A stretch of 64,000 bases of DNA from Pirellulales bacterium (GTDB taxonomy: Bacteria > Planctomycetota > Planctomycetia > Pirellulales > PALSA-1355): NCBI GenBank assembly GCA_963733035.1, contig CAVTBU010000009.1, forward strand, positions 160,001-224,000, in the 5' to 3' direction. The first letter of the stretch is position 1, and every line of letters begins with the position of its first letter. Below, piece after piece: positions 43,280 to 64,000 of this stretch. The notes beneath the pieces were generated by a model, which was not told the origin of the DNA, did no database searches, and saw only the letters and a list, made by a program, of their open reading frames with translations. The position numbers and the translations under genes are program-made.

Positions 43280-46200
43280 CTACGTCAGAGCGTCGCCGAG
43301 AAGTTCGAGCGCCGTTTCGTCGACTTCGTTCGCATCGCCAGTTGAAAACAGCTCGTCGAGACCATCGGCGGCATACGACCAATCGGCCGCCAGGGCCCAG
43401 TCGACCTGGGCGGCGCCCAGCGGAGCGGCTTTCGCCAGGACTACGGCCGGAGCAGGTGACTCCGCGTCGGCGGTCACGCTTTTGGCCGGTACTGTCAGCG
43501 ACGCGGCCACGGCGTTTCGCAGGTCGTCGCTTGGTTTACTGGCCAGCGCGTCGCTTGTGCCTAACGGCCGCGCGAGCGGGGCGGGAGGGGGAGAAATCTG
43601 AATGCGCGGCAGGACGCCGGCATTGGTATGGACGATAAACCGATCGTCGAGCGAGCCGTTCCGGTTGATGTCCAAGTTGCTGGTAATCGGGAGGTTCCTG
43701 TATTGCGTCGCCGTACGCACCGCGATCTCGTCCGCCGCGTTGGTGACAAAATAATTCGCCGGCGTGCCTGCCAGCGTATCGCCAATCCGGTTGCCGAAGA
43801 AGAATTCGTCGGGGGACGAAAGGCCCGTGTGGGCGTCGGCCGCGACGATCACTTCGAGATAGGTGTTCTTGATCGCGCCGTCGGGCCAGACGATTTCCAC
43901 GCGGTCGGATCCGCCGTCTCCCTGGCCCGGCAGCACCACCACGGCCGATGGCGCGGGCGCCGCCGCCCAGGTATCGGGTGCGTTGTTGCTTCCCACGCGG
44001 AAGATGAAGTCGGCGGCCGTGATATCCGGATGCGAACCGGCGATGTCGACCATGATGCCGTTAATACCACGCGAGTAGCTGGTGACGTTTTGCGGCCCAG
44101 CCAGGCTGCCATTGGGGAGCAGGGCTTGTTTGTCGGTGGCGATGGCGAACACATCGAAGGGACCAACGCCGGAAATGTTACCGTTGAAGGTCGAGTTGTC
44201 GTAGAAAACGTGCCGGCCGGCGATGACGGTCTGAAAGGTGGCACCAGATTCAAACGCCCCGATGTCCACATGCCGTCCAACGACGCGACTGTACCCCGCG
44301 CCTCGTTGATCGAAGGGCGTCGGTGGATCGGTTGCGTTGGGATCGAACGCCGGATCGCCGGCGTTGATGGCCGGGCTGTCGTCGACAAGCTTGTGCGTCT
44401 GCGTCGGCCCGCCGTTGTCGGCCAGGTTGGTGTCGAGAATTGCGTGGACATCCAGTGCGTGCCCGCTCCCATCGCCGACTATGTTGCCTCTTGTGCCGTA
44501 CACTAAACCGCCGGCTGTTTCCGGATCGGCAATCAGATTGAACGAACTCGCCAGATCGATCTGCCCGCCATCGAGTTGGATATCGCTGGCGGTTGCTGGC
44601 ATTGCATTTGTGAGTCGATTGCCGGCAATGATCGTGCTAGTTAGCATGGTCGTTCCACCCGCCAGGTCGAGCCCACCTCCGGTACCGAACCCATCTCCGT
44701 CCGCATCCGCTTGGTTAACCGCAACCGTGGTATTTGACAGAGTTAGCTGGGTAGTGGCGCCGCCGGTATAAACCCCGCCGCCCGAGGCACCCGCCGCATT
44801 GCCTGACAGAGTGCTGCTGGCCAAGGTCGCAATGGAGCCAGCCGCGTTATAGAGGCCGCCTCCCTCGACGGCCGCCTGGTTTACCGACAAGGTGCTGTCG
44901 GCGACAGTGACCACTGCCTGGTTGGCATTGAAGATCGCGCCGCCGCTGGCCGATGCCGTATTCTCACTGAGCGTGCTACTCGTGATTTGACACTGCGCCG
45001 CCTGCAGGTTGTTGACACCGCCGCCGTATCCGTTGGTGGCCGCGTTCCCGGAAATCGTACTCAACGCAATCTGCAGCACACTGTTGTTACCCATGTTAAA
45101 AACTCCGCCTCCGCTGGCGGCGGAATTGCCGGTGAGCGTGCTACGCTCAAGCACCGTGACGCTACCGTGGGAAACTCCACCGTTATTGATTCCGCCGCCC
45201 GAATTGTTGGCCGTGTTGCCCGAGAGGATGGTGTCGGTCACGGCGACAGCTGCTATTGCTATTTGGGGAAAAACCGAATAGTTGTCGATGGCGCCGCCAC
45301 GGTTTGTCGCGGTGTTGTCTGACAGGGTACTGGCGTTTATCGTTGTCGTTCCCGCACTGATGGAGATTGCGCCACCGTTTTCCGCGACGTTGGAGGAGAT
45401 GTTGCTAGAGTTGATCGTCAATTCTCCACTGCCAGCGGCGTAGATTCCCCCACCGGACGCTGCGGAGTTGCCCGTGATCGTGCAATCGTTGATGGTCCCC
45501 CCGCCGATTTGGATCGCGCCGCCGTAACTTTCCGCAGAGTTGTTTGAAAGAGTGACGCGTGAGAACGATGCCAGACTAGCGTAAACTGCTCCGCCAAAGC
45601 GGCTCGAATTGCCCGTAAGCGTGCTGTCACTCATGGATAAGAGGCTGTATCGTGTCCCTGTGTCATCGTAGATGGCCCCGCCCTCGTCTTGTGCTGCGTT
45701 GTCGGAAAACGTGGTCTCCTCAATCGTTAGCTCCGGCAAAAGGTGTGGCGCGATTAGGCTGATCGCGCCACCAATGATTGCGCGGTTTCCCACAAATACG
45801 CAATTGTTAACCCTCACTCGGGCATCCACATCGGCTAGTGCGCCACCGCGACCGCTCCAACCGCCAGTAAGTGTGAGCCCCTCGACGTCGAGGGACGCCC
45901 CGCTGTGTGCATCGAGAATCCGGTCGCCGTAGCCGAGGCTGGGGTCAACCAGGCCGGAAGCGTCGATCGTCGTCGTGTCGGCGCCCGCGCCGACGATCGT
46001 GACGCTGCCGCTACTGAGAATGTCCAAGTCGCCCGTGAGCGCGGCATCTTCATTCGCCCCTTGGATTGTCAAGGTATAGGTGCCGGCGGGGAGCACGATC
46101 TGGTAGTCATTCGGCGAGGCGTTTGCTTCGAGCACGGCTTCGCGCAAGGAGACGAGGCCGTCGTTCGGATCGATGACGTCCTGGGTGGTGGTCACTTCGA

Positions 46201-46348
46201 CCACCGTGGCCGTCAGCAGGTGACGCTGTTCGAGGGCTTCGAGTCTGAGGCTGGAAAACCGGCTGGAAGCGAAATTGCGGGAACGTGCAAAACGCTGGGG
46301 GCGCGCAACAGCGCATGGTCCGCGCGGGACCGTTCGATAGGTCGACAT
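43280..46348 (-). CDS. Large secreted beta-helix protein (CSLREA / Pmp-like GGAI repeats / choice-of-anchor Q-like)
   Basis: LEALEQRHLL, VSLREAV, many NxAxxGGAI repeats, LADNGGPTQT...DQRG...DIGAFE. Confidence 0.85.
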   Translation of the reverse strand: MSTYRTVPRGPCAVARPQRFARSRNFASSRFSSLRLEALEQRHLLTATVVEVTTTQDVIDPNDGLVSLREAVLEANASPNDYQIVLPAGTYTLTIQGANEDAALTGDLDILSSGSVTIVGAGADTTTIDASGLVDPSLGYGDRILDAHSGASLDVEGLTLTGGWSGRGGALADVDARVRVNNCVFVGNRAIIGGAISLIAPHLLPELTIEETTFSDNAAQDEGGAIYDDTGTRYSLLSMSDSTLTGNSSRFGGAVYASLASFSRVTLSNNSAESYGGAIQIGGGTINDCTITGNSAASGGGIYAAGSGELTINSSNISSNVAENGGAISISAGTTTINASTLSDNTATNRGGAIDNYSVFPQIAIAAVAVTDTILSGNTANNSGGGINNGGVSHGSVTVLERSTLTGNSAASGGGVFNMGNNSVLQIALSTISGNAATNGYGGGVNNLQAAQCQITSSTLSENTASASGGAIFNANQAVVTVADSTLSVNQAAVEGGGLYNAAGSIATLASSTLSGNAAGASGGGVYTGGATTQLTLSNTTVAVNQADADGDGFGTGGGLDLAGGTTMLTSTIIAGNRLTNAMPATASDIQLDGGQIDLASSFNLIADPETAGGLVYGTRGNIVGDGSGHALDVHAILDTNLADNGGPTQTHKLVDDSPAINAGDPAFDPNATDPPTPFDQRGAGYSRVVGRHVDIGAFESGATFQTVIAGRHVFYDNSTFNGNISGVGPFDVFAIATDKQALLPNGSLAGPQNVTSYSRGINGIMVDIAGSHPDITAADFIFRVGSNNAPDTWAAAPAPSAVVVLPGQGDGGSDRVEIVWPDGAIKNTYLEVIVAADAHTGLSSPDEFFFGNRIGDTLAGTPANYFVTNAADEIAVRTATQYRNLPITSNLDINRNGSLDDRFIVHTNAGVLPRIQISPPPAPLARPLGTSDALASKPSDDLRNAVAASLTVPAKSVTADAESPAPAVVLAKAAPLGAAQVDWALAADWSYAADGLDELFSTGDANEVDETALELLGDALT

Positions 46349-46614
46349 GGCTCTTCCTCTGTCCGTAGGAACGCGATAACGAAAATAAGACGCACTTCGC
46401 TCGGCCGGACTCTCGCGTTGCCCTCGCGAGCCTCTTCGTCCTGCCAACTGTCGACCCGATTTTCGTCCGCGTGGGCCACGCGAAAAATAAACGATCCAAA
46501 AGGAGGCGGCCCACACGCCACCCGTCAGAGTAAAGGAACCCGCTAGCTTTGTCCAGAGAATTCCGGGCAAAAAGTTCGGTGAGCCAAGCGATAGTGAACG
46601 CGACGATCAGACGC

Positions 46615-47036
46615 CTACGTCCACAGGTTCCGGTCGAGCGTGCGGTAGTTGATCGCCTCGCTGATGTGCTCGGGACGGATCGACTCGCTGGACTCGATGT
46701 CGGCGATGGTACGGGCGAGGCGCAGGATTTTGTCGTGCGCCCGGGCCGAAAGGCCGAGTTCGGTCATCGTGGCGCGAAGGAGATTCATACAGGGGTCGTC
46801 CAAGGGGCAGAACTGCCGAATCTGCCGGTGCGTCATGCGGCCGTTGTGACGGGTGCCAGTTCCGGCGAAGCGAGCTTGTTGCACTTCGCGGGCGGCTTCC
46901 ACGACCTCGCGCATCTGGGCGCTGGAGGTGCCCGGCGTTTTCGCCGAAAGTTCGCGGAAGGGAACGGCCGGCACTTCGATTTGGATGTCGATGCGGTCGA
47001 GCAGGGGGCCGGAAATCTTGGCCATGTAGCGTTCGA
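46615..47036 (-). pseudogene. comM: 3' fragment of a YifB/ComM Mg-chelatase-like ATPase, interrupted by the island
   Basis: VERYMAKISGPLLDRIDI...LGLSARAHDKILRLARTIAD...HISEAINYR; an in-frame TAA and unrelated sequence lie immediately upstream. Confidence 0.92.
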
Positions 47037-47041
47037 CTTAC
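47009..47041 (-). repeat. att-like site 1 (comM/island junction), 33 bp
   Basis: ccggaaatcttggccatgtagcgttcgacttac is the exact reverse complement of 52701..52733. Confidence 0.9.
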
Positions 47042-47231
47042 GGAACCTTAGAAAACCTTACGCCGGAAATGATCGAAGCTTTAGGGGTCATTGATCGGGT
47101 GTTCGACGGCTCGGCTATCCCCCAGGAGAAGCCACCCAGCCCCATGCCTAAGGCAATCTAACCGTTTCCGCCGCATTCGGGGCCACGGAGGGCGCGGGTG
47201 CACCACCTACGCAACAGGGAGATTGACGACG

Positions 47232-48014
47232 ATGTGTCTAGTTGAATCAATCGACCGGGCAATTGAGTTTGTCCGTGAACATGAGCTGCTAATGACGGAG
47301 GACGATGTGGATGAGCTAATACGGATCGCGGGCAGGGTCGTCGAGTTGGCTTTCCGCAGCGGCCTTCATTATGTTCTGCCGGGCATCGACATGCGTTCGC
47401 TGGTTGAATATCCCAGCGTGTCGGAGCCTCCCGTTGTATTGTCCGCCCTCAACGTGCCGGGCGATTGGAGTCGTGATGTTCTTAACCTGGAGGGTGAAAC
47501 ACTTGAACGTGCGTTTCTGCCGTGCGTGCCGGACCGTTGGTACGAAGCAATGATGATTCTACGATCTCTGGCCTGCCGTGACGCTCCTGCGGAGGAGCCG
47601 AACCAGCCCCAACCCAAGAAGCCCAAGGCAAAGGGCATGGGCCGAGAGGAGGTATTCAAGCGACTGGTGGAGCTGTGGCAGCAGGGAGAGCCGTTCACCA
47701 CTTGTGAGGAAATGGCTGAGCGGTTTGGTTGTTCTGATACCACCGTCCACCGAGCAATCCAGCGCAGTGAGAAGCTAAAGGCTTGGGCTGCGAAAGGGCC
47801 GAAGCGTACCCAACGGCTCGATGACGTAGTGCTAGACCGGACGGCTCAGAGCCGGGAGCCCGCACCGGACGATGACGCCCAATTGCGAGAATTGATTGAA
47901 CAGGCCGAACCGTCTTTGCGAGCATTCTTACACACAGTGCCACCCGAGAAACTGCGGCAGATGTCGGCCGATGATTTGAAGCAGCTAGTAGTCAATCCTG
48001 AGTGCAGAGCCTAG
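47232..48014 (+). CDS. Hypothetical protein with C-terminal HTH (putative regulator)
   Basis: TCEEMAERFGCSDTTVHRAI HTH pattern; GGAGA RBS. Confidence 0.65.
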   Translation: MCLVESIDRAIEFVREHELLMTEDDVDELIRIAGRVVELAFRSGLHYVLPGIDMRSLVEYPSVSEPPVVLSALNVPGDWSRDVLNLEGETLERAFLPCVPDRWYEAMMILRSLACRDAPAEEPNQPQPKKPKAKGMGREEVFKRLVELWQQGEPFTTCEEMAERFGCSDTTVHRAIQRSEKLKAWAAKGPKRTQRLDDVVLDRTAQSREPAPDDDAQLRELIEQAEPSLRAFLHTVPPEKLRQMSADDLKQLVVNPECRA

Positions 48015-48021
48015 GCCCAGC

Positions 48022-48085
48022 AGAAACGTTTCTCAGGCATTTCTCCGCAAAAACACGGCATTTCTAGCAAAAACCGGAAACGTTT
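48022..48085. promoter_or_regulatory. Putative operator cluster
   Basis: Palindrome agaaacgtttct (48022-33), aaacgttt (48078-85), and a tandem ggcatttct..gcaaaaac pair between them. Confidence 0.5.
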
Positions 48086-48133
48086 ACCACCTATAGAGGC
48101 CCGCGATTTTGGGCTGGAAAGGATTGGTGAACG

Positions 48134-48355
48134 ATGAACGACGGTACTGCTCCCCGGCTGCGTACGCCGGGCATTATCGCTGTGGAGTTAAAGGCTCCAC
48201 TCTCCCGAGTGCTCTACGTCTTACGCACTCGCCCCCACATTCGTCCGGCTGCCTACGCTGGCACGATCCGCCTCTACCGCGAAGACGCTGTGGCGATGGT
48301 CCGCCATGAGCTCAACGCGATTGACTCTAGAAAGGGGGGCCGAAGCGATGCCTAA
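48134..48355 (+). CDS. Small DNA-binding protein (excisionase/AlpA-like)
   Basis: 73 aa, TPGIIAVELKAPLSRVLYVL...GTIRLY winged-HTH pattern; overlaps the helicase start. Confidence 0.6.
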   Translation: MNDGTAPRLRTPGIIAVELKAPLSRVLYVLRTRPHIRPAAYAGTIRLYREDAVAMVRHELNAIDSRKGGRSDA

Positions 48356-49943
48356 GCGTGACGACTGCAGGAGGGAAGACCCTATTGCGAAGCGGCCCGA
48401 GTTCAAAAAACGCCTCAAAGAAGCTGAACTGGCATACCAGGTGCGTGACAAGAGGAGCATAGGTGAAGAGCTTACGCCAGAGGAAGAAGACATCTACCTG
48501 TTGGACGTTGCTCGACGTACGGAGCAAGCCCTATCCAAGAGAGATCCAAACGCCAAGTCACCGGCTCGTGCACCACTCCTCACGAGGCGGACGAAACACG
48601 ACTCAACCGATGAGCAAAAACTAGATCGGCTCCGACGTGAATGTGCGGAGTTTAACGGACCACCGACCCTTGGCCCGCACGGTGACCTGCGCACGATGGC
48701 CCAGGTGTTGGCTTTGCTTCAACATGCCACGCCATTGCGTGACGCGTTCCTGGAGGGAGTTGGTATTCCACCGTCCGCTCTCTCAGTCCGTGTTTGTGAC
48801 CGACTATCCCACGGGATTTTGGAGGATCTTGACCGCACGGAGGCGTCAGGAATCTGGGATATACCCTGGGAGAAGCTAGAGATTGATCGCCAGGAACGTC
48901 GTCCACGCCAAGGCATCAACACCCGTCGATTGTCGGACGTTTTGGCCCATGAAGTCGAATGGCAGTGGCCAGGCGTGACCGCCCTAGGAAAGTTGACCCT
49001 GTTCAGCGGCAATCCAGGCGTGGGTAAGACCTGGCTGGCGTTGGATATCATAGCCCGACTTACAACCGGTCGCCCTTTTCCGCTCCAGGCGAATCCGCCC
49101 AACGTTGACCGTAAATTTCCAAAGGGTGAATTACTTGTCGGCGGGTCAATCCGGCGCAATGCGTTGTTCATAAGTGCGGAAGACGCAGACGAAGATACCG
49201 TCAAGCCACGAATCGAGCTACTTGGTGGCGATTCGACGCGGATTCACACGTTGGACTTCATTTTTGAGAACCGCAATAGAAGAACCCTCTCGCTCGCGGA
49301 CCATATCAACTATTTAGACAAGTGGCTCTTTTCTGAGCCGATGGTTGAACTCGTGGTGATTGACCCGCTAACCGCGTTCCTGGGGAAAACAGACAGTCAC
49401 AAGAACGCGGACGTGCGAGCCGTCTTGGAGCCGTTATCGAAAGTGGCGGAAAAACGACGCGTAGCCATCATCGGCGTCAACCATCTCACCAAGGGAACGG
49501 AAGGATCAGCCGTACATCGCTCGATGGGCTCGATTGGCTTTATGGCTGCTGCCCGAGTCGCATGGCAAGTCACTGCCGATCCTGATGAGCCAGACCGTAG
49601 CCTAATGCTGCCCGTCAAGGTCAACATCGGGAAGACCCCACGGGGCTTAGCGTTTCGGCTCAGCGAAACGACCGGCATCGAGTGGGAACAGGAAAGCATT
49701 GATCTGACCGCTGACGAAGCCCTCAACGGACCACGCGAGAGCAAGCTTGACGACGCTAAGGACTTCTTGCGCAACCTGCTGCGAGAGGGGCCAATGCCTG
49801 CGACGGCGGTGGAGGACGCAGCCGCGAAGGCAAGAATCTTCGGATCGACACTCAAGACCGCCAAACGGCAACTCGGCATCAAGTCCGAAAAGAGCCCGGC
49901 ACCGAACGGCGGTTGGGAGTGGCGGCTACCGGAGCGTCGGTAA
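48348..49943 (+). CDS. AAA_25 / RepA-type replicative helicase
   Basis: EWQWPG..ALGKLTLFSGNPGVGKT (Walker A), SAED, VVIDP (Walker B), HLTK, GSIGF, KVNIG. Confidence 0.85.
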   Translation: MPKRDDCRREDPIAKRPEFKKRLKEAELAYQVRDKRSIGEELTPEEEDIYLLDVARRTEQALSKRDPNAKSPARAPLLTRRTKHDSTDEQKLDRLRRECAEFNGPPTLGPHGDLRTMAQVLALLQHATPLRDAFLEGVGIPPSALSVRVCDRLSHGILEDLDRTEASGIWDIPWEKLEIDRQERRPRQGINTRRLSDVLAHEVEWQWPGVTALGKLTLFSGNPGVGKTWLALDIIARLTTGRPFPLQANPPNVDRKFPKGELLVGGSIRRNALFISAEDADEDTVKPRIELLGGDSTRIHTLDFIFENRNRRTLSLADHINYLDKWLFSEPMVELVVIDPLTAFLGKTDSHKNADVRAVLEPLSKVAEKRRVAIIGVNHLTKGTEGSAVHRSMGSIGFMAAARVAWQVTADPDEPDRSLMLPVKVNIGKTPRGLAFRLSETTGIEWEQESIDLTADEALNGPRESKLDDAKDFLRNLLREGPMPATAVEDAAAKARIFGSTLKTAKRQLGIKSEKSPAPNGGWEWRLPERR

Positions 49944-49959
49944 TGCTATCCCGCGACCC

Positions 49960-50114
49960 CTTCACCCCCTTCGACTCCTTCGACAAATCTCCCACAAAAT
50001 TTGGGGGTAATCGAAGAAGGTGGTTTCACCCCCTTCGACTCCTTCAACTCACCAATTTTTGAAGGGGGTGAAGAAGGTGAAGGGGACGAAGGGGGTGAAG
50101 AAGACGAAGAAAGT
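49960..50114. repeat. Convergent 9-bp iteron array (putative replication origin)
   Basis: CTTC at 9-bp spacing (49960/69/78; 50024 variant/33/42) facing six GAAG-headed 9-mers (50061/70/79/88/97/106), with A/T-rich spacers. Confidence 0.75.
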
Positions 50115-50226
50115 TACCCCCATCGCACACCCGGACTGACACCCTTGTTGCCTTCCCCCAGGAAGCAGTCGCTAGACGACGCTTGTGAAGGTTGCGAAGC
50201 AAACTGACCAACGGAGAAACACCGCG

Positions 50227-50445
50227 ATGACTGAACGACTCGCTAGGTACGAAGAGTTGCTGAAACGGGCTCGCCTAAATGTCCTGCTGCTACGGCGGGA
50301 GATTCTGCGAGTGGAGCGGGCGATGGGCAAAGGACTGCCCCCGCTCGACATAGAGCCTTGGCGTGTAGAGGTTTTGGACATGCGACGGATTGAGAAAGTG
50401 ATTCTGGGCCTAATCGAGTTGGAGAAAAACCGCACGCAGACTTGA
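50227..50445 (+). CDS. Small hypothetical protein
   Basis: 72 codons after a GGAGA RBS; helical and charged. Confidence 0.55.
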   Translation: MTERLARYEELLKRARLNVLLLRREILRVERAMGKGLPPLDIEPWRVEVLDMRRIEKVILGLIELEKNRTQT

Positions 50446-50533
50446 CTTCCTGAATGGGGACATACGATTGTTATTAGCGTATAACCCACTTGGGTGGTTA
50501 GATATCCCCTCATTCATAGGAGAGACTAGCGAG

Positions 50534-51139
50534 ATGGCTATAGACTATTCAAAGTTGATTGGGAAGCGTTCAAAGTTGATCCCCATCGTCCCAACTTCGG
50601 ACCTGTACTTAGCGAACCTGGCAAGAGACTGCGCCGACGGGCACCGCTTCGCCAGAATCTTTAGGGATACATGGCGTCAGATTCCATTGGGGGATCGGCG
50701 GCGAATGGTGAAGCATTGGCACACCGATGAAAGAATGGATTCTGGCTGGTCCCACCCGCGTATATCGCGGAGGATGGAGCGGGAAAGATTTCCCATCTCG
50801 CGTTCTGATTACATTGCGAGTATCCAGCTAATTGCGGGCTGGAATAAAGAATATATCTACCCACACTATCTACCGGACGACGCCGAACATTGCGGTGCGT
50901 TTGTCACTGTCGCCGCAATGGGTCATAAGTTATGGTTCCACGCGCCATCGGTTGCACGGATGCCGGACAATGTTGTGGCGAACTTGATAGCCAAGGGGCT
51001 GGCTCATGTGTATCAGTGGGCGACAGAGCCGGAGCTGTTTGACGATCCAGATGACCCAGGCAACACGGAGTACCTTGAAGGGGACGCCAACCAGAAAGTT
51101 GAGAGTTGGGGCTTTGAACTGTACTCGATTGAGGAATAG
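50534..51139 (+). CDS. Hypothetical protein with degenerate zincin-like motif
   Basis: LIAKGLAHVY...EGDAN..VESWGF; AGGAG RBS. Confidence 0.55.
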   Translation: MAIDYSKLIGKRSKLIPIVPTSDLYLANLARDCADGHRFARIFRDTWRQIPLGDRRRMVKHWHTDERMDSGWSHPRISRRMERERFPISRSDYIASIQLIAGWNKEYIYPHYLPDDAEHCGAFVTVAAMGHKLWFHAPSVARMPDNVVANLIAKGLAHVYQWATEPELFDDPDDPGNTEYLEGDANQKVESWGFELYSIEE

Positions 51140-51165
51140 CTGCACTCCCGAGCTGGATGAATCGA

Positions 51166-51206
51166 CCATCTACAGAATCCAACAACCCACTACGCCTACC
51201 CCTAGC
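51166..51206 (+). repeat. 41-bp direct repeat, copy 1
   Basis: ccatctacagaatccaacaacccactacgcctacccctagc, identical to 58873..58913. Confidence 0.95.
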
Positions 51207-51261
51207 ACTCACGGCTGGCGAATCGCTTCGCTTTATCGTGTTGCAGTCAATGAAGTGCCTG

Positions 51262-52449
51262 TCAGTCTGCATCGCCAAACGCGAGCAGCTCACCGCCTTT
51301 GCTTAGAAACAGCAGTTTCCCATTGGTCATCAAACCTTCGATTCGCTCGCTATCGGAAGCACCGATCTTCCATTTCAATTCGCCGTTGGCTGCGTCTAGC
51401 CCGTAGAGCTGGCCGTACAAGGTGGCAACATATACCAACCCGCCACCGAGAAGAGGCGGATCATAAATCGGCGCACCATGACCTGGAACATAATCGCATT
51501 TGAATTTCCAGATCATCTTGCCAGTTTCTGCGTTGAGTCGATAGACGCTCCCGTTGAGGGATCCAAAAAATACAGCGTCGCCTTGCACGGCGGCAGCGGC
51601 TTCCACCTCGAAGCCGCAATGGAAATCCCATTTAACCAGGCCAGTTTCCCTGTCAAGGCAATACAAACGCCTATCCTTTGAACCGATATACACATACTTT
51701 TCAGTGACAACAGGATTGCCGTAAATCCAACCCTTGGTCTGAAAGGACCATTTTACCTGCGCCGTCTCGCAATTAATGGCAACGATTCGCGACTGATCAA
51801 AGATAGGCTGAAACAAGGTCTTTCCATCGGTGGCCGGCATCCTGGGCCTGGCTCCATCAGCGCCAATTCGGCCTCGCCTAGCATCGAAACCGGGCGGCGA
51901 CGGTGGTGCGTCCTTCAGCAAGTCGACAGTCCACTTGCAAACGCCAGACTTTGCATCAAATGCATAGACTAAGCCGTCTTCCGCCATGAAAACCAACAAA
52001 TCGCCGATCATCACCGGCACGAAACCTTGTGAGCCCGTCTCCCGTGTCCAAACCACGTTGCCGTTGGAGGTGTTAATCGCGACCACGTATTTCTCCGTCA
52101 AAAAGTACGCAACGTCGGCCATGACCAAAGATAATTTCAGTGGCGCTGCGTACGCTGGGCAGTTTGCATACCGTAGCAATGTTCCGTCAGAAGCTCGGCA
52201 TGAGCTCAGCTGCTGGCGATCCACCGAATAAAGGAGGTCGCCAGCAGGAATCACGTTCGTTCCATGCTGTCTCCAGACAACCTTTGGTTCGTGTTCCAAT
52301 TTCAGTCTCGAATCGCAATTCGTTCTGGCTTGGTCCACTTGCAAAATCGCATCCGCGCCATAAAGTAGCGCCCTCGCATCGAGAGTAAATGACAAGGCCA
52401 TGGCAAGAGCCACACTTGTGTAACGTGCGGGCCGCTTAGTGTTCAGCAT
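51262..52449 (-). CDS. PQQ-binding-like (BamB-type) beta-propeller protein
   Basis: Repeated LYxLDxxTGxxxW blades; signal-like N-terminus. Confidence 0.85.
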   Translation of the reverse strand: MLNTKRPARYTSVALAMALSFTLDARALLYGADAILQVDQARTNCDSRLKLEHEPKVVWRQHGTNVIPAGDLLYSVDRQQLSSCRASDGTLLRYANCPAYAAPLKLSLVMADVAYFLTEKYVVAINTSNGNVVWTRETGSQGFVPVMIGDLLVFMAEDGLVYAFDAKSGVCKWTVDLLKDAPPSPPGFDARRGRIGADGARPRMPATDGKTLFQPIFDQSRIVAINCETAQVKWSFQTKGWIYGNPVVTEKYVYIGSKDRRLYCLDRETGLVKWDFHCGFEVEAAAAVQGDAVFFGSLNGSVYRLNAETGKMIWKFKCDYVPGHGAPIYDPPLLGGGLVYVATLYGQLYGLDAANGELKWKIGASDSERIEGLMTNGKLLFLSKGGELLAFGDAD

Positions 52450-52643
52450 GACGATTTTCCCCAAGGTGATTAACGAGCCAAGCGAAGAGAGCTCAGCGAC
52501 AAAAGATCCTGGCAAAGATCACTATAGCGAAGGTGCGCCGAGCGGTAAGTGGGCTGCCTACCCTTGACCGCCAAGCTGCTCCCGAGCGGCAACACCACGG
52601 AGATCAGAAACAGCATTCCGCGGTCTTGCAAATCTCGGGACTC

Positions 52644-52668
52644 ACAACCCACTACGCCCACCTCAATC
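52644..52668 (+). repeat. Degenerate partial copy of the 41-bp repeat
   Basis: acaacccactacgcccacctcaatc vs acaacccactacgcctacccctagc: 15-bp exact core, 21/25 identical. Confidence 0.7.
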
Positions 52669-52700
52669 CAGCTCCTCTCGCACGTTAGTTATAGGGCTCA

Positions 52701-52733
52701 GTAAGTCGAACGCTACATGGCCAAGATTTCCGG
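52701..52733 (+). repeat. att-like site 2 (inverted copy of the comM junction)
   Basis: gtaagtcgaacgctacatggccaagatttccgg; contains the TAG of the recombinase on the minus strand. Confidence 0.9.
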
Positions 52734-54299
52734 GGCGTTGGTGACAGGTTCCTGGTTTCGCATCCAGACGATGCCGCGCTCCAGTCGGTACTTGGACCGC
52801 TTGCCCCAGGGTCGCTTATCCGTGAAGATGTCCACGCGCGAGATTGACCCGCGGAAGAATTGCCGCAGTAGATGTGGATCGGCTTTCGTGGCAGCCTCCC
52901 TGAAGCGTCCAAACCACTCTAGAGCAGCTTCGACCCTCCTGTCTATGTCATCGCCCTTCGTGCGTGAATTGGACGCACAGGACGCCAGACGGGCTTCTGC
53001 AGCCACACGTTGTCGACGCAATCCTCTGATCTGCTCTTGTACGTCGTCAAGCAGATCGGCGTCGACTTCCACCAGACGTTGCTTGGCCTTGGCCAGCTTC
53101 GCCTCGATGGCATCAAGTTCACGACGCAGTGCCTGCGGCTCGGGTTCCCGTTTCAGTTCCTTCAGTTGGCGTCTCATCGAGGATGCCAACTGCGCCAGGG
53201 TCTCGGGGTTGTAGTACCGTTCCTGCAGGCCATCCAGCACGCCGGCAACGATTTCATTCTGGCGTAGGGTGTTGCGGTCGCAGTACGTCTTCCCGTGCTG
53301 GCGGTATCCGTAGCAGGTGTAGTGGTGCTTGCCGTTCGACAAATCGCCGATCATCTTGTGCCCACACTTGCCACAGCGCAGCACTCCCGAGAGTACGAAA
53401 CCACCGCCGCTTGGGTGCGGTGTGGAGCAGTTCCTGCGCTCGGCCAACTGCTGCTGCACCCGGTCGAACGTATCCCGGTCGATAATCGCCTCATGGTGAT
53501 CCTCGAAGACGATCCAGTCGGCCGCGTTGTTCCGTTGCTCGGGGCGGCCCTTCCGCTTGTATTTCGACATGCAGCGCATGTTCCAGATGTAGTCTCCCAC
53601 GTAGACCCGGTTGCGGAGCATTCCAGCGATTCCGTTCGCTGTCCAGCCCTTCCCCTTGGGTGATGGTCGGCCTGAGTTGTTCAGCTCGTCGGCCAGCCCG
53701 CGCAGGCTCTTGGCCGCTAGGTACTCGGTGAAGAGCCAACGAACGAGCGCGACATCCTCTGTTGGCCCCAGCAAGAGTCGCTTATTGACCGCGACGTACC
53801 CCAACGCCGGCTTGCCGGATGCCCACAGGCCCTGCTCTGCGAGGCTAGTCATGCCGCGCGTGACATTCCTCGACAGATCGGTCAGGTATTGGTTCTTAGC
53901 CTCCTGCTGAATGCCGTACAGTACTCGACCAGCGAAGTCCCCCCAATCGATGAACCCTTGGGCGACGGTCGCGAGATGTACGCCAGCCCTGCGCAGTGGA
54001 AAGATCCAGTACCCAGCCTCGAGGGAATCAAATCGCCCGAACCGATCAATATCCCAACACAGGATCGCTTGGAACTTCCGGTGTTGTCCGTCTCTGACCA
54101 TCGCTTGGAATTCACGCCGCTTGTCGGTCGCATCGCCGCTGATTCCCTCGTCGATGTATTCACGAACGATGTGATAGCCGTTGGCCTTGGCGTACTTCTC
54201 GACTGCCGTCCGTTGGTCAGGAATCGAGGTTTCCTGTCGGTCGGTGCTCATGCGGTAGTAGGCCACCGCAGGGATGTAGTTTTCATTCGTCGCAATCAC
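52713..54299 (-). CDS. Large serine recombinase (integrase) 1
   Basis: YYRMST, DEGISG, DRFGR, recombinase domain (GY, LRNRVYVG, HEAII), zinc ribbon CGKCG/YTC/YC, coiled coil. Confidence 0.95.
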   Translation of the reverse strand: MIATNENYIPAVAYYRMSTDRQETSIPDQRTAVEKYAKANGYHIVREYIDEGISGDATDKRREFQAMVRDGQHRKFQAILCWDIDRFGRFDSLEAGYWIFPLRRAGVHLATVAQGFIDWGDFAGRVLYGIQQEAKNQYLTDLSRNVTRGMTSLAEQGLWASGKPALGYVAVNKRLLLGPTEDVALVRWLFTEYLAAKSLRGLADELNNSGRPSPKGKGWTANGIAGMLRNRVYVGDYIWNMRCMSKYKRKGRPEQRNNAADWIVFEDHHEAIIDRDTFDRVQQQLAERRNCSTPHPSGGGFVLSGVLRCGKCGHKMIGDLSNGKHHYTCYGYRQHGKTYCDRNTLRQNEIVAGVLDGLQERYYNPETLAQLASSMRRQLKELKREPEPQALRRELDAIEAKLAKAKQRLVEVDADLLDDVQEQIRGLRRQRVAAEARLASCASNSRTKGDDIDRRVEAALEWFGRFREAATKADPHLLRQFFRGSISRVDIFTDKRPWGKRSKYRLERGIVWMRNQEPVTNAPEILAM

Positions 54300-58154: not shown

Positions 58155-58866
58155 TCAGCTGGCGTCACCGCTCGACATGATGGCGAACTGCTCATCGCCC
58201 TGTGCCACGCCGAAGTCGTGGTAGCCACGCCATTGCATGCCCAGGGTGTTGAAGTCGGTCTGGCTGGACTCGATGGTCGGAACCGCGCGGCCGTTCAGGA
58301 GGGCGACCACGATTGCAGAACCAATTGAAGGTTCGGACATCAGGAACCACACAGTGCTGCTCTGGTTGCTGATTCCGCTGCCGTCCGGCTTCTTGATGCC
58401 GGTCACGTCCAGGTACTTGCTCTTCACGGGACGGTAGCGGCCTTGGTAGATGTTCTCGGTGCCGATCTGCGATCCGTTCGCGTCGACCGACAGTAGGGTC
58501 GTCTGTCGATACAGATTCGTCGCGGTGACGATCTGGGCAGTGCCCGTGAGCAGGATGGCTGGATCGGCCATAATCGGCTTTCCTCCTGCACCGGTGAACT
58601 TGCCGAAGGCGATTTCCCCGGCCTCCAGGCCCCCGATCGACAGCACATCATCGATCAGGTTGTTGTTGCCGACCGAGAAGAAACTGCCCGTGTTCGACAG
58701 TAGGGTGTCGTACACCTCCGATTCGATGGCCCAAACAGCACCATCAGCCAGACCGTTGAGCACCTGACGGAAGGCGTCCAGGTCGTCGTTGATGATGTGC
58801 CGGCGGTCGAGCGAAAGCATCCGCCCGCGGGTCTCCGCCTGCACGGTACGCTTCGAGTCCGACAGC
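58155..58866 (-). pseudogene. C-terminal fragment of a Mu-like (gpT / ClpP-fused type) major capsid protein
   Basis: ETRGRMLSLDRRHIINDDLDAF, VALLNGRAVPTIE, DFNTLGMQWRGYHDFGV; the frame is closed by TAG next to the 41-bp repeat. Confidence 0.75.
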
Positions 58867-58872
58867 TATTCT

Positions 58873-58913
58873 CCATCTACAGAATCCAACAACCCACTAC
58901 GCCTACCCCTAGC
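58873..58913 (+). repeat. 41-bp direct repeat, copy 2
   Basis: Identical to 51166..51206; ~200 bp upstream of the resolvase. Confidence 0.95.
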
Positions 58914-59039: not shown

Positions 59040-59070
59040 TTTACTACGTGTGTGGTAGAGCGTAGACTAA
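59040..59070 (+). repeat. Dyad-containing repeat upstream of the resolvase
   Basis: tttactacgtgtgtggtagagcgtagactaa, 24/31 identical to 59770..59800; CTAC-N7-GTAG. Confidence 0.65.
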
Positions 59071-59114
59071 GGGTAACGGTACGTATGTTCACTACGATAC
59101 AGGAGGGGCGAACC

Positions 59115-59714
59115 ATGAAGCATATTGCGATCTACTTGCGGGTATCCACGACCGGACAGGACACGAAAAGCCAGCTACCCGACCTGGAACGATGGGCTGC
59201 GGCTCAATCCGATCCGGTCAAGTTCTACAGCGACAAGGCGAGCGGTAAGACGATGGACCGGCCGGGCTGGGCGAAGCTAGAGGCAGCGATTCGACAGGGC
59301 CGCGTTAAGGCTGTCGTAGTGTGGAGGATTGATCGACTCGGCCGCACCGCCAAAGGGCTTACTGCGCTGTTCGACGAACTACGCGAGCGGAAGATCAACC
59401 TAGTCTCGCTACGCGATGGCCTGGACCTATCGACCCCGGCCGGGCGGTTGATGGCGAACGTGCTTGCGTCTGTGGCTCAGTATGAAACCGAAGTGCGGGG
59501 CGAGCGAGTAGCAGCCGGGCAAGCCAAAGCACGGTCGCAGGGCAAGCGTTGGGGCGGCTCGCAACCGGGAGTGCGGAAGAAGGTCACCGATACGCAGCTC
59601 AAGGCTATCCACTCGATGCGTGCGAACGGCGAGCGTATCACCCATATCGCCACCGCTCTGGGGCTCTCTCGGCCCACGATCTATGCCGTCCTACGCGAGC
59701 CCGCAGCAGCGTAA
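59115..59714 (+). CDS. Small serine resolvase/invertase with C-terminal HTH
   Basis: YLRVST, DKASG..RPG, RIDRLGR, STPAGRL, IATALGLSRPTIY; AGGAGG RBS. Confidence 0.95.
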   Translation: MKHIAIYLRVSTTGQDTKSQLPDLERWAAAQSDPVKFYSDKASGKTMDRPGWAKLEAAIRQGRVKAVVVWRIDRLGRTAKGLTALFDELRERKINLVSLRDGLDLSTPAGRLMANVLASVAQYETEVRGERVAAGQAKARSQGKRWGGSQPGVRKKVTDTQLKAIHSMRANGERITHIATALGLSRPTIYAVLREPAAA

Positions 59715-62315: not shown

Positions 62316-63149
62316 ATGCTGACGCTTACCGTCAACCTGACCGCCGCAGCTCGCAGCGAATCAATCAACGGACGGCCCTACCTGGTCGCTCCAATGACGT
62401 TGATCGTGCCGGGAGTCTTGAACGGCAGCAGGGGCCCGTTGCTCTATCCGCCCGAAGAGATTGAACGGAGCGTAGCGGCCTGGAACGGTGTACCGCTCGT
62501 GTTGGGCCACCCTCGCAACAGCAATGGCGTTCCTATCTCGGCTCGCTCGCTGGAGATTCTGAACCGGATCGGCCTAGGTTTCGTCCAGGGAGCCCGCACG
62601 GAGAACGGCAAGCTGATGGCGGAAGGCTGGTTTGATGTAATCCGCATGAAAGAAGTCCATCCAGCGGCCCTTGCTCGACTTCAAGGCGGACTACCGCTTG
62701 AACTGAGTACGGGGCTCAACACCGACAACTATCGGGCCACGCCTGGATCAACCTACAACGGCCGAGCCTACCATGCCGTGGCTCGCAACTACGAACCCGA
62801 CCACCTAGCAATCCTGCCGGAAGACAAAGGAGCCTGTTCCCTTAACGACGGATGTGGAGTCCTAAACATGCGATATGAAGATTTCAACCAATACCCCCAA
62901 CAGCTTGTTCACAACGGAGTGGTCTACCAGCCGGTAGGTCCAGTAGCCAACGACCTGAATGAAGAGCTGCTGGAAGAGCCGACGATCAACTGGCGGGAGT
63001 GGGCCGGCTGGGAAGATCCCAAGCCCGCAGCTCAGCCTTGCTCGAATCGTGCCGCAACAGAGAACGTCCAAGCTGATCCGAACGACATCAACGCCGAGAA
63101 GCTTGAAGAGGCGGATATCAACTGGGCCGAGTGGGCGAAAGGGAATTGA
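62316..63149 (+). CDS. DUF2213-type prohead protease-like protein
   Basis: PGVLNG, WNGVPLVLGHP, ELSTG, YNGRAY, PDHLAILP..KGACS..DGCG. Confidence 0.8.
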   Translation: MLTLTVNLTAAARSESINGRPYLVAPMTLIVPGVLNGSRGPLLYPPEEIERSVAAWNGVPLVLGHPRNSNGVPISARSLEILNRIGLGFVQGARTENGKLMAEGWFDVIRMKEVHPAALARLQGGLPLELSTGLNTDNYRATPGSTYNGRAYHAVARNYEPDHLAILPEDKGACSLNDGCGVLNMRYEDFNQYPQQLVHNGVVYQPVGPVANDLNEELLEEPTINWREWAGWEDPKPAAQPCSNRAATENVQADPNDINAEKLEEADINWAEWAKGN

Positions 63150-63520: not shown

Positions 63521-64000
63521 ATGTCCAAGAAGCTGATGCCGGCCGCAGGCTACCTTCGTAAGTCAACGGCTGGAGAAGGTAAGGAAGGTAAAGAGCGTCA
63601 AGAAAAGTCCATCCCTACTCAAAAGGCTGAGATTGAAAAGCTGGCCAAGGCAGAGGGCTACAAGATCGTTCGCTGGTACGCCGATCCCGGCATCAGCGGA
63701 TGGAAGAGGGGCGTCAAGCGTCCAGACTTTACCCGGATGATTGCCGAAGCGCAGCAGCTTCGGGATATCCAAGCCATCGTCTGCGACGACATCGACCGAT
63801 TTAGCCGTGCGGATATGGATGAGGTCCAAGCTGATGTGTTCGCTCTGAAACAGGCGGGAGTTCAGTACATCATTACCGCAGCCCAAGGCGTCTATGACCT
63901 GGGCAGCCACGGCACTGACTTCGGTAAGGTTGTAAAGTTCATGGCCGACGTGTGGGGCTCGAATCAATTCAGTCGCAAACTGTCTCGCCGGATAGCTCGG
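63521..64000 (+). CDS. Large serine recombinase 2 (5' part; runs off the right edge)
   Basis: Hand translation MSKKLMPAAGYLRKST...QEKSIPTQ...YADPGISG...KRPDF...DDIDRFSR...FSRKLSRRI; missing from the ORF track. Confidence 0.9.
   Translation, partial: MSKKLMPAAGYLRKSTAGEGKEGKERQEKSIPTQKAEIEKLAKAEGYKIVRWYADPGISGWKRGVKRPDFTRMIAEAQQLRDIQAIVCDDIDRFSRADMDEVQADVFALKQAGVQYIITAAQGVYDLGSHGTDFGKVVKFMADVWGSNQFSRKLSRRIAR

Follow-up and report, generated by a model that had tools for sequence, protein, structure and literature searches.

Elements moved by large serine recombinases (LSRs) share a recognizable layout: a three-domain LSR, its gene at the element edge beside an attachment (att) site, an imperfectly palindromic attP and a 2-bp crossover. 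They enter one gene site-specifically, and several unrelated lineages can be found on the same gene. Part of the survey by Durrant et al. (10.1101/2021.11.05.467528), which kept only LSRs at most 500 nt from their att sites, reports many LSR clusters per target gene and, for 12.4% of the site-specific LSRs, names an 'ATP-dependent protease' gene as their target. Here, we describe a locus of this kind in a Pirellulales bacterium (assembly GCA_963733035.1, a 10-contig draft genome of 6.6 Mb that is 92% complete), within a window of 64,000 nucleotides (contig CAVTBU010000009.1, positions 160,001 to 224,000; G000:C9:160001-224000 in our numbering), where two unrelated families of serine integrases appear to have used the gene comM. 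We suspect that comM (yifB) is the 'ATP-dependent protease' target. The locus shares the features listed above, with the att palindrome and 2-bp crossover of the LSR1 type taken from a homologue, and differs in that the crossover lies inside the integrase open reading frame (ORF) in both families.

Integration that changes the end of a gene is known from other systems. Passages of PMC6070905 describe how attP of Mx8 lies inside int and how integration creates a new int 3' end. The families described here also carry attP within the integrase coding sequence, but the Mx8 enzyme is a tyrosine recombinase whose change in activity was measured, whereas ours are serine recombinases known from sequence alone. 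In mycobacteriophage BPs, parts of PMC4557955 place attP inside a gene whose prophage form is C-terminally shorter than the viral form, and state that truncation on integration removes an ssrA-like degradation tag from the repressor. A search of open-access papers and bioRxiv found no description of a serine integrase ORF that spans its attP, which is no proof of absence. As to the target, excerpts of PMC11472951 present comM as interrupted by diverse mobile elements, such as the AbaR Tn7-like islands of Acinetobacter; those islands move by Tn7-like transposition, whereas here serine integrases are found at two points of comM 29 nt apart (the LSR3-type and LSR1-type crossovers), with a further LSR near residue 365 in genome G135.

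The junction of interest, J2, is where the 3' end of one integrase gene, LSR1, runs into a fragment of comM. Judged from its sequence and that of its homologues, J2 is a fossil: it is the attL left by a rare serine integrase that targets comM, and a second integrase family has clipped it. It is ordinary in kind, a case of nested elements in a hotspot. In its full form, the reading that we consider quite probable is that J2 represents the attL of an LSR1-type element cut at an AA dinucleotide by an LSR3-type arm, that LSR1 has been stranded, inverted, within the element of the second integrase, LSR3, and that both families have their attP inside the integrase 3' end. The parts of J2 are the following (window positions).

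52713..54299, minus strand: LSR1, 528-aa large serine recombinase, integrated-state form (Pfam domains and homologues)
52701..52733, strand not applicable: J2, compound relic junction, a 33-nt exact inverted copy of 47009-47041
52705..52731, plus strand: 27-nt comM relic, codons V-E-R-Y-M-A-K-I-S, the antisense of which is E-I-L-A-M-stop of LSR1 (sequence match to comM)
52732..52733, plus strand: GG, probable LSR1-type crossover dinucleotide, the first two bases of an LSR1 Pro codon on the minus strand (att sites of genome G071 and three-way alignment)
52734..52760, minus strand: P' arm of the LSR1-type attP, which is LSR1 3' coding sequence (...EPVTNA; homologous stretch in contig L076 and G071)
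52703..52704, plus strand: AA, probable LSR3-type central dinucleotide and left edge of the comM relic (symmetry of the attP rebuilt from junctions J3 and J1)
52684..52702, plus strand: P2, putative LSR3-type attP arm abutting the relic (close to the tail-side arm of genome G093 in a by-eye comparison)

LSR1 carries the Resolvase (PF00239, 1.5e-25), Recombinase (PF07508, 1.2e-26) and Zn_ribbon_recom (PF13408, 4.8e-12) domains, the three that define a large serine recombinase. Its C-terminus reads ...VTNAPEILAM-stop, and the plus strand at 52714-52734 reads YMAKISG. An earlier note on this DNA had pointed out that PEILAM-stop is the antisense of comM YMAKISG; this is correct, and the match belongs to the 33-nt inverted repeat of a comM junction (47009-47041), the site where the genuine comM 3' fragment begins. 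With their flanks, J2 and that junction, J3, are 91% complementary over 45 nt. Since the 26-nt core of the match occurs exactly twice in the 6.6-Mb genome, the resemblance is far above chance, and tblastn with the ComM of a relative also gave a match at window 52705-52743. LSR1 ends in PEILAM-stop because J2 consists, from left to right, of the P2 arm, AA, 27 nt of comM, GG and the LSR1 3' end; comM DNA encodes the residues E-I-L-A-M and the stop TAG, the latter being the antisense of CTA in CGC TAC. The relic agrees with the host comM allele at 28 of 28 positions, and comM of relatives differs from it at one to six. GTC (Val) is common to the host comM and the relic, with ATC in the six aligned relatives.

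The position of the crossover was taken from homologues. Among 300 genomes of the same order, the closest LSR1 homologue, and the sole close one, is that of G071 (62% identity). This gene is directly convergent with a comM 5' fragment that terminates ...YMSKISG, written ...CHCTVPQIERYMSKISG, and the comM 3' fragment restarts at GPLLDRID, 11.4 kb off. The attL and attR of G071 have only GCGGG in common, and the attP rebuilt from them, TGTTCAGCTTGGC-GG-GGCAAGCTTAACA, is imperfectly palindromic about a central GG, the same two bases that begin the Gly codon in ...KISG|P. A further homologue is encoded on L076, a contig from a metagenome (66% identity over residues 123-528) that ends ...VQNAPDILAM-stop and is antisense into a comM 5' fragment, itself 96% identical to a same-genus ComM and ending ...YMAKISG. 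Both close homologues therefore sit in comM at this position, in agreement with the earlier note's view that the integrase gene end overlaps its own target-like site. When the C-termini of the homologous recombinases are aligned with comM, as that note had proposed, the three 3' ends (LSR1, L076 and G071) run together up to ...GCC|CC and then track comM, which places the crossover at the GG of KISG|P, within the LSR1 ORF and six codons short of its stop. The G071 LSR enters comM in another reading frame and takes only R and the stop TGA from comM-derived DNA. In all three known LSR1-type members, the integrase ORF passes the crossover and stops in antisense comM. The family is rare: when LSR1 residues 370-528 were searched against 5.8 billion proteins, just the LSR1, G071 and L076 members came back, and no LSR1 homologue at E<=1e-80 was detected in 400 further genomes of the phylum. 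A contig search of genomes with LSR1 gave only relatives at 30% identity or less, and single-protein queries of viral contigs returned nothing useful for LSR1 or LSR3. Further LSRs about 40% identical to LSR1 lie elsewhere in comM (L074 in G135 and L075 in G122), the G135 comM being interrupted near residue 365 by about 17 kb, so that, within this order, LSRs have targeted comM at three points or more.

The earlier note had called the stretch a mimic of comM. Read in this way, it would be an evolved or captured attP arm and the working attP of LSR1. The coincidence of the gene end with target-like sequence would suit a mimic, and some likeness between the attP and attB arms of an LSR is expected, both being bound by one protein. 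However, the 33/33 identity stops abruptly at two points, and both are crossovers defined independently in other genomes. The identity between J2 and J3 starts 5 nt ahead of the comM sequence, at GTAAG, and these 5 of the 33 nt are not comM but LSR3-type arm and crossover, present at J3 as well. The true attP P arm of G071 is unlike comM. The note had also seen a likeness to comM GPLLDRI past the core, in ggg gcg ttg gt- gac agg ttc, but this likeness is at chance level, with scores as high or higher in 654 of 5000 shuffles and in 989 of 1516 24-mers under the same gene. A mimic is thus very improbable to us. With its host-specific GTC, 52705-52733 is, by comparison with the host allele, genuine comM DNA, the B arm of a relic attL of the LSR1-type family.

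The second family is represented by the element in which LSR1 now lies.

46615..47037, minus strand: comM 3' fragment (Mg_chelatase 177-205 and Mg_chelatase_C; Pfam domain matches)
47009..47053, minus strand: J3, attR of the LSR3 element (P1 arm-AA-comM; sequence comparison)
63521..64000, plus strand: 5' part of LSR3 (587 aa; the gene runs to window-equivalent 65284; Pfam and J1 sequence)

Here comM (YifB/Mg-chelatase family, minus strand) is interrupted by an island of about 18.2 kb, with limits at window 47038 and window-equivalent 65282. Its 5' half lies past the window end (Pfam Mg_chelatase positions 1-178 at C9:225278-225814) and terminates ...CACTGCACGTTACCTCAAG|CTGAACACGAT... at junction J1, and the 3' half, with Mg_chelatase positions 177-205 and the whole of Mg_chelatase_C at window 46642-47040, starts on the minus strand as ...ttccg TAAG TCGAACGCTACATGGCCAAGATTTCCGG ccccctgctcgac. 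Joining J1 and J3 in silico at AA yields an open comM of 533 aa, 89% identical to the same-genus G001 ComM over 513 ungapped residues, in which both the Mg_chelatase AAA domain and Mg_chelatase_C are whole once the island is removed. As its sequence stands, comM is disrupted at present, and excision would restore it exactly.

J1 and J3 belong together as the two ends of the LSR3 element, and J2 with LSR1 lies inside it, inverted relative to comM. LSR3 and LSR1 share 32% identity. The LSR3 gene finishes across J1, with GCT as its final sense codon and TGA as its stop, the stop being contributed by comM and the crossover TT at 65281-65282, beyond the window. The attP rebuilt from the element sides of J3 and J1, GGTTTTCTAAGGTTCCG-T AA G-CTGAACACGATAAAACC, is an imperfect palindrome centred on AA, with the symmetry judged by eye. 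The LSR3-type crossover corresponds to the last two bases of the comM Gln394 codon (CAA here; window 47038-47040). The exact crossover dinucleotides of both families are those that we infer from symmetry and shared bases.

Two LSR3 homologues, in G093 (54% identity) and in the IMG/VR contig L121 (39%), each converge on a comM 5' fragment whose last residue lies within 396-398. The G093 element measures 14.4 kb and has AG at the matching place, on a CAG Gln codon, versus CAA in our host. L121, whose record lacks the comM 3' part, was the one additional integrated comM case found when viral contigs were searched with an alignment (A1) of 12 of the 16 LSR3-type proteins; the same search gave one non-comM case. 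The LSR3-type ORF reads beyond the element edge at 5 of the 5 loci examined, and, taken with the LSR1-type family, the crossover is within the ORF in both, not downstream of the stop codon as would be expected if the tail were identical in all states.

The Gln394 codon is CAA in this host and in G002, and CAG in G001, G003 and G093, with elements carrying AA and AG correspondingly; this synonymous polymorphism may decide which LSR3-type element can enter. In G160 (contig C53, 8250-10412; L108), a frameshifted LSR3-type gene has the opposite polarity (tail, arm, AA, comM 3' part); the flipped central dinucleotide would flip the orientation of the element in comM. Another LSR3-type ORF, in G241 (contig C12, 5671-8326; L109), uses a different target and continues in frame into a gene start (...KVPPSEET|MHIILAAPRGFCAGV...), a like read-through. 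From its sequence, we take the gene entered there to be probably ispH-like. The assembly of G003, of the same genus as our host, breaks right after ...CCTCAG, the LSR3-type crossover (start of G003:C5 and end of G003:C24; L020 and L021). The break consists of two contigs with a 119-nt overlap, with no third branch found, and may reflect a mixed population with and without an island. Beyond our window, the comM 5' half is open into the island, forming a chimeric 486-aa ORF (L001 1210-2670, minus strand; ...CHCTLPQ|AEHDKTGRGIFPAF...) that is antisense to the LSR3 tail.

J2 and J3, as an inverted pair, might instead be the ends of a working invertible segment (5.66 kb, 47054-52688) flipped by an LSR or a Hin-like invertase. 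Such a segment would account for an inverted repeat that is perfect over 33 bp and 91% matched over 45 bp, with its copies 5.6 kb apart, and the island does contain a DNA invertase gene; J2 is also a complete attR-like LSR3 site, inverted versus J1, where LSR3 with a directionality factor could flip 12.6 kb instead of excising. However, J2 and J3 are both attR-type hybrids (P arm-AA-comM arm), and LSRs are not known to recombine two sites of this type. Worked by hand, a J2 x J3 flip alters no site type and no LSR1 codon, and the repeats are hybrid LSR att sites, with the invertase (59052-59714) outside the segment. We therefore regard a working inversion as unlikely. That the arrangement could be an assembly chimera is suggested by the draft state of the genome (10 contigs, 92% complete), but a repeat of only 33 bp would not mislead so contiguous an assembly, J2 and J3 each have unique flanks, and the LSR1 side of J2 is homologous to two independent attL sites, all of which makes a chimera extremely unlikely.

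Returning to J2 as a clipped attL, the genome holds no complement for LSR1. No second copy of the comM arm 3' of GG was found in it, the comM 5' arm and the LSR3 tail arm likewise occur nowhere else, and a search for a symmetric partner arm for LSR1 gave only low-similarity, chance-level matches. LSR1, having no attR or attP partner in the genome, would thus be stranded and locked in its integrated-state form, with its ORF intact. J3 retains an uncut LSR1-type attB (…TTTCC GG CCCCC…). To the left of J2, a permissive tblastn search for relics of an LSR3-type gene gave noise only, and a likeness of ...SYRAQ-stop to the G093 tail was dropped as too short for use. As the relic is cut at AA by P2, LSR3-type and LSR1-type elements would once have been adjacent in comM of the host allele, and J2 would have formed there. 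The block with J2 and LSR1 would later have entered the present LSR3 element, and its carrier, at a guess, was the 7.7 kb between two direct repeats.

51166..51206, plus strand: 41-nt perfect direct repeat, left copy (repeat search)
58873..58913, plus strand: 41-nt perfect direct repeat, right copy, beside which a capsid fragment (58158-58865, minus strand) is cut off (repeat search)

This block contains a PQQ-repeat gene, J2, LSR1 and the truncated capsid gene. A third copy of the 41-nt repeat, at 63%, lies at 52628-52668; both perfect copies run up to the ATG that starts a small ORF on the minus strand (50930-51169; 58655-58876), and the flanks of these two copies are unrelated.

Several points weigh against our reading of J2 and its history. 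Starting from a single comM, purely conservative site-specific recombination cannot yield the inverted J2 together with two 27-nt copies: J1xJ2 and J2xJ3 inversions (at AA or GG), tandem integration and integration at a palindromic pseudo-site were worked through by hand, and none gives the present map. A J1xJ2 inversion would produce a G071-like attL and leave the second 27-nt copy unaccounted for. No related 7.7-kb block was found in 40 relatives, which leaves the block without comparative support. The LSR1-type comparison set comprises three genes only, and the crossover position of LSR1 is set by homology to G071 and not by its own attR, which is not in the genome; the short palindromic att sites and the 2-bp crossover are those seen for the G071 homologue. 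Finally, gene conversion between the inverted copies could explain the perfect allele identity, and would blur the origin of the relic.

The crossover lies inside the ORF, 5' of its stop, and the C-terminus therefore has to change between the integrated and the excised protein. Such a placement was found in 3 of 3 LSR1-type and 5 of 5 LSR3-type ORFs. Rebuilt in silico, the G071 LSR measures 522 aa integrated and 546 aa excised, a difference of 24 aa. LSR3 measures 587 and 627 aa, respectively, a difference of 40 aa, and the G093 LSR 612 and 618 aa, with 26 versus 32 codons past the crossover. The in-silico joins predict that the serine integrases of both families rewrite their own C-terminus on integration and excision. 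For LSR3, the codons of the extra residues lie at the other end of the integrated element, away from the rest of the gene (47039-47158).

47039..47161, plus strand: 40 codons and a stop, predicted C-terminal extension of LSR3 on excision (in-silico join, J1 x J3)

The excised tails could be compared for two elements, LSR3 and G093, the LSR1 type being without a second excised form. The two tails align as NL.P....L..[IV]DRVF[DE].SA, with a score reached by none of 20000 shuffles, and by one of 20000 when the nine arm-encoded residues are left out. Six of the nine identical residues in this block have different codons, which may point to selection on the protein rather than on the DNA. A phmmer search of 1.84 billion representatives with the 40-aa extension found no protein with such a tail; the single match, to a repeat protein, was judged spurious. 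Fifteen database homologues share ...RGRFRLGQ..G..P..VL and then have unrelated tails, as expected of integrated copies, in a comparison of the proteins alone.

The earlier note had proposed that recombination could set the integrase tail and its stability, as in BPs. The first part is borne out in silico for G071, LSR3 and G093; the notion of a conserved tag is argued against by the varied tails. The integrated LSR3 and G071 LSR are, as in BPs, shorter than the excised forms (by 40 and 24 aa), but in BPs the gene is a repressor with a tagged long form, whereas here it is the integrase itself, with no tag identified. Since the host-encoded LSR1-type tails differ between elements (PEILAM, PDILAM and R), a conserved degron in the integrated LSR1-type form is unlikely. 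Tentatively, at least two unrelated serine-integrase lineages might span attP such that the free-form enzyme is longer and the integrated form truncated and host-tailed, with the extra ~35-40 aa of the LSR3 type as a conserved module (E.L...DRVF..SA), and the element might sense its own state through forms differing in activity, directionality or stability. We see this as a possibility, and a doubtful one.

The rest of the island is a partly decayed mosaic, with an AAA_25 primase/helicase-like gene, a large terminase, a head protease, a Hin-type invertase and a capsid remnant.

59052..59714, plus strand: small serine recombinase of the DNA invertase type, ~140 nt to the right of the second 41-nt repeat copy

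The capsid gene is a 3' fragment only, matching Pfam positions 74-250 of 262; the corresponding reading frame in G160 has 401 aa and is 34% identical to it. When the island DNA was compared with 40 relatives, the invertase gene and the terminase gene alone gave matches, at ~70% identity and elsewhere in G003. The capsid fragment (58158-58865, minus strand) and the head-protease gene (62316-63149, plus strand) lie on opposite strands with the Hin-type invertase between them, which suggests an inversion of ~58.9-63.3 kb within the island. Just 3' of the AAA_25 primase/helicase-like gene (48306-49943), at 49950-50110, 9-nt periodic repeats (GAAGGGGGT/GAAGAAGGT) stand opposite inverted copies (TTCACCCCCTTCGAC); the cluster resembles an origin of replication of the iteron type for the island. 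Outside the island, a 1096-aa ORF with Chlamydia-PMP-type repeats (43280-46570, minus strand) adjoins the comM 3' end.

The apparent mimic is explained as a molecular fossil, a record of two integrases at neighbouring points in a single host gene. Genome engineering makes wide use of serine integrases, and annotated sequences taken from integrated elements may be truncated or junk-tailed compared with the integrating form. A C-terminus rewritten by integration and excision is, as far as our literature search shows, undescribed for serine integrases. If the two forms do serve to sense the state of the element, they would be a serine-recombinase counterpart of the integration-dependent control of Mx8 IntP and BPs, and the central dinucleotide on a synonymous Gln codon (CAA/CAG) would set which host alleles can be entered.

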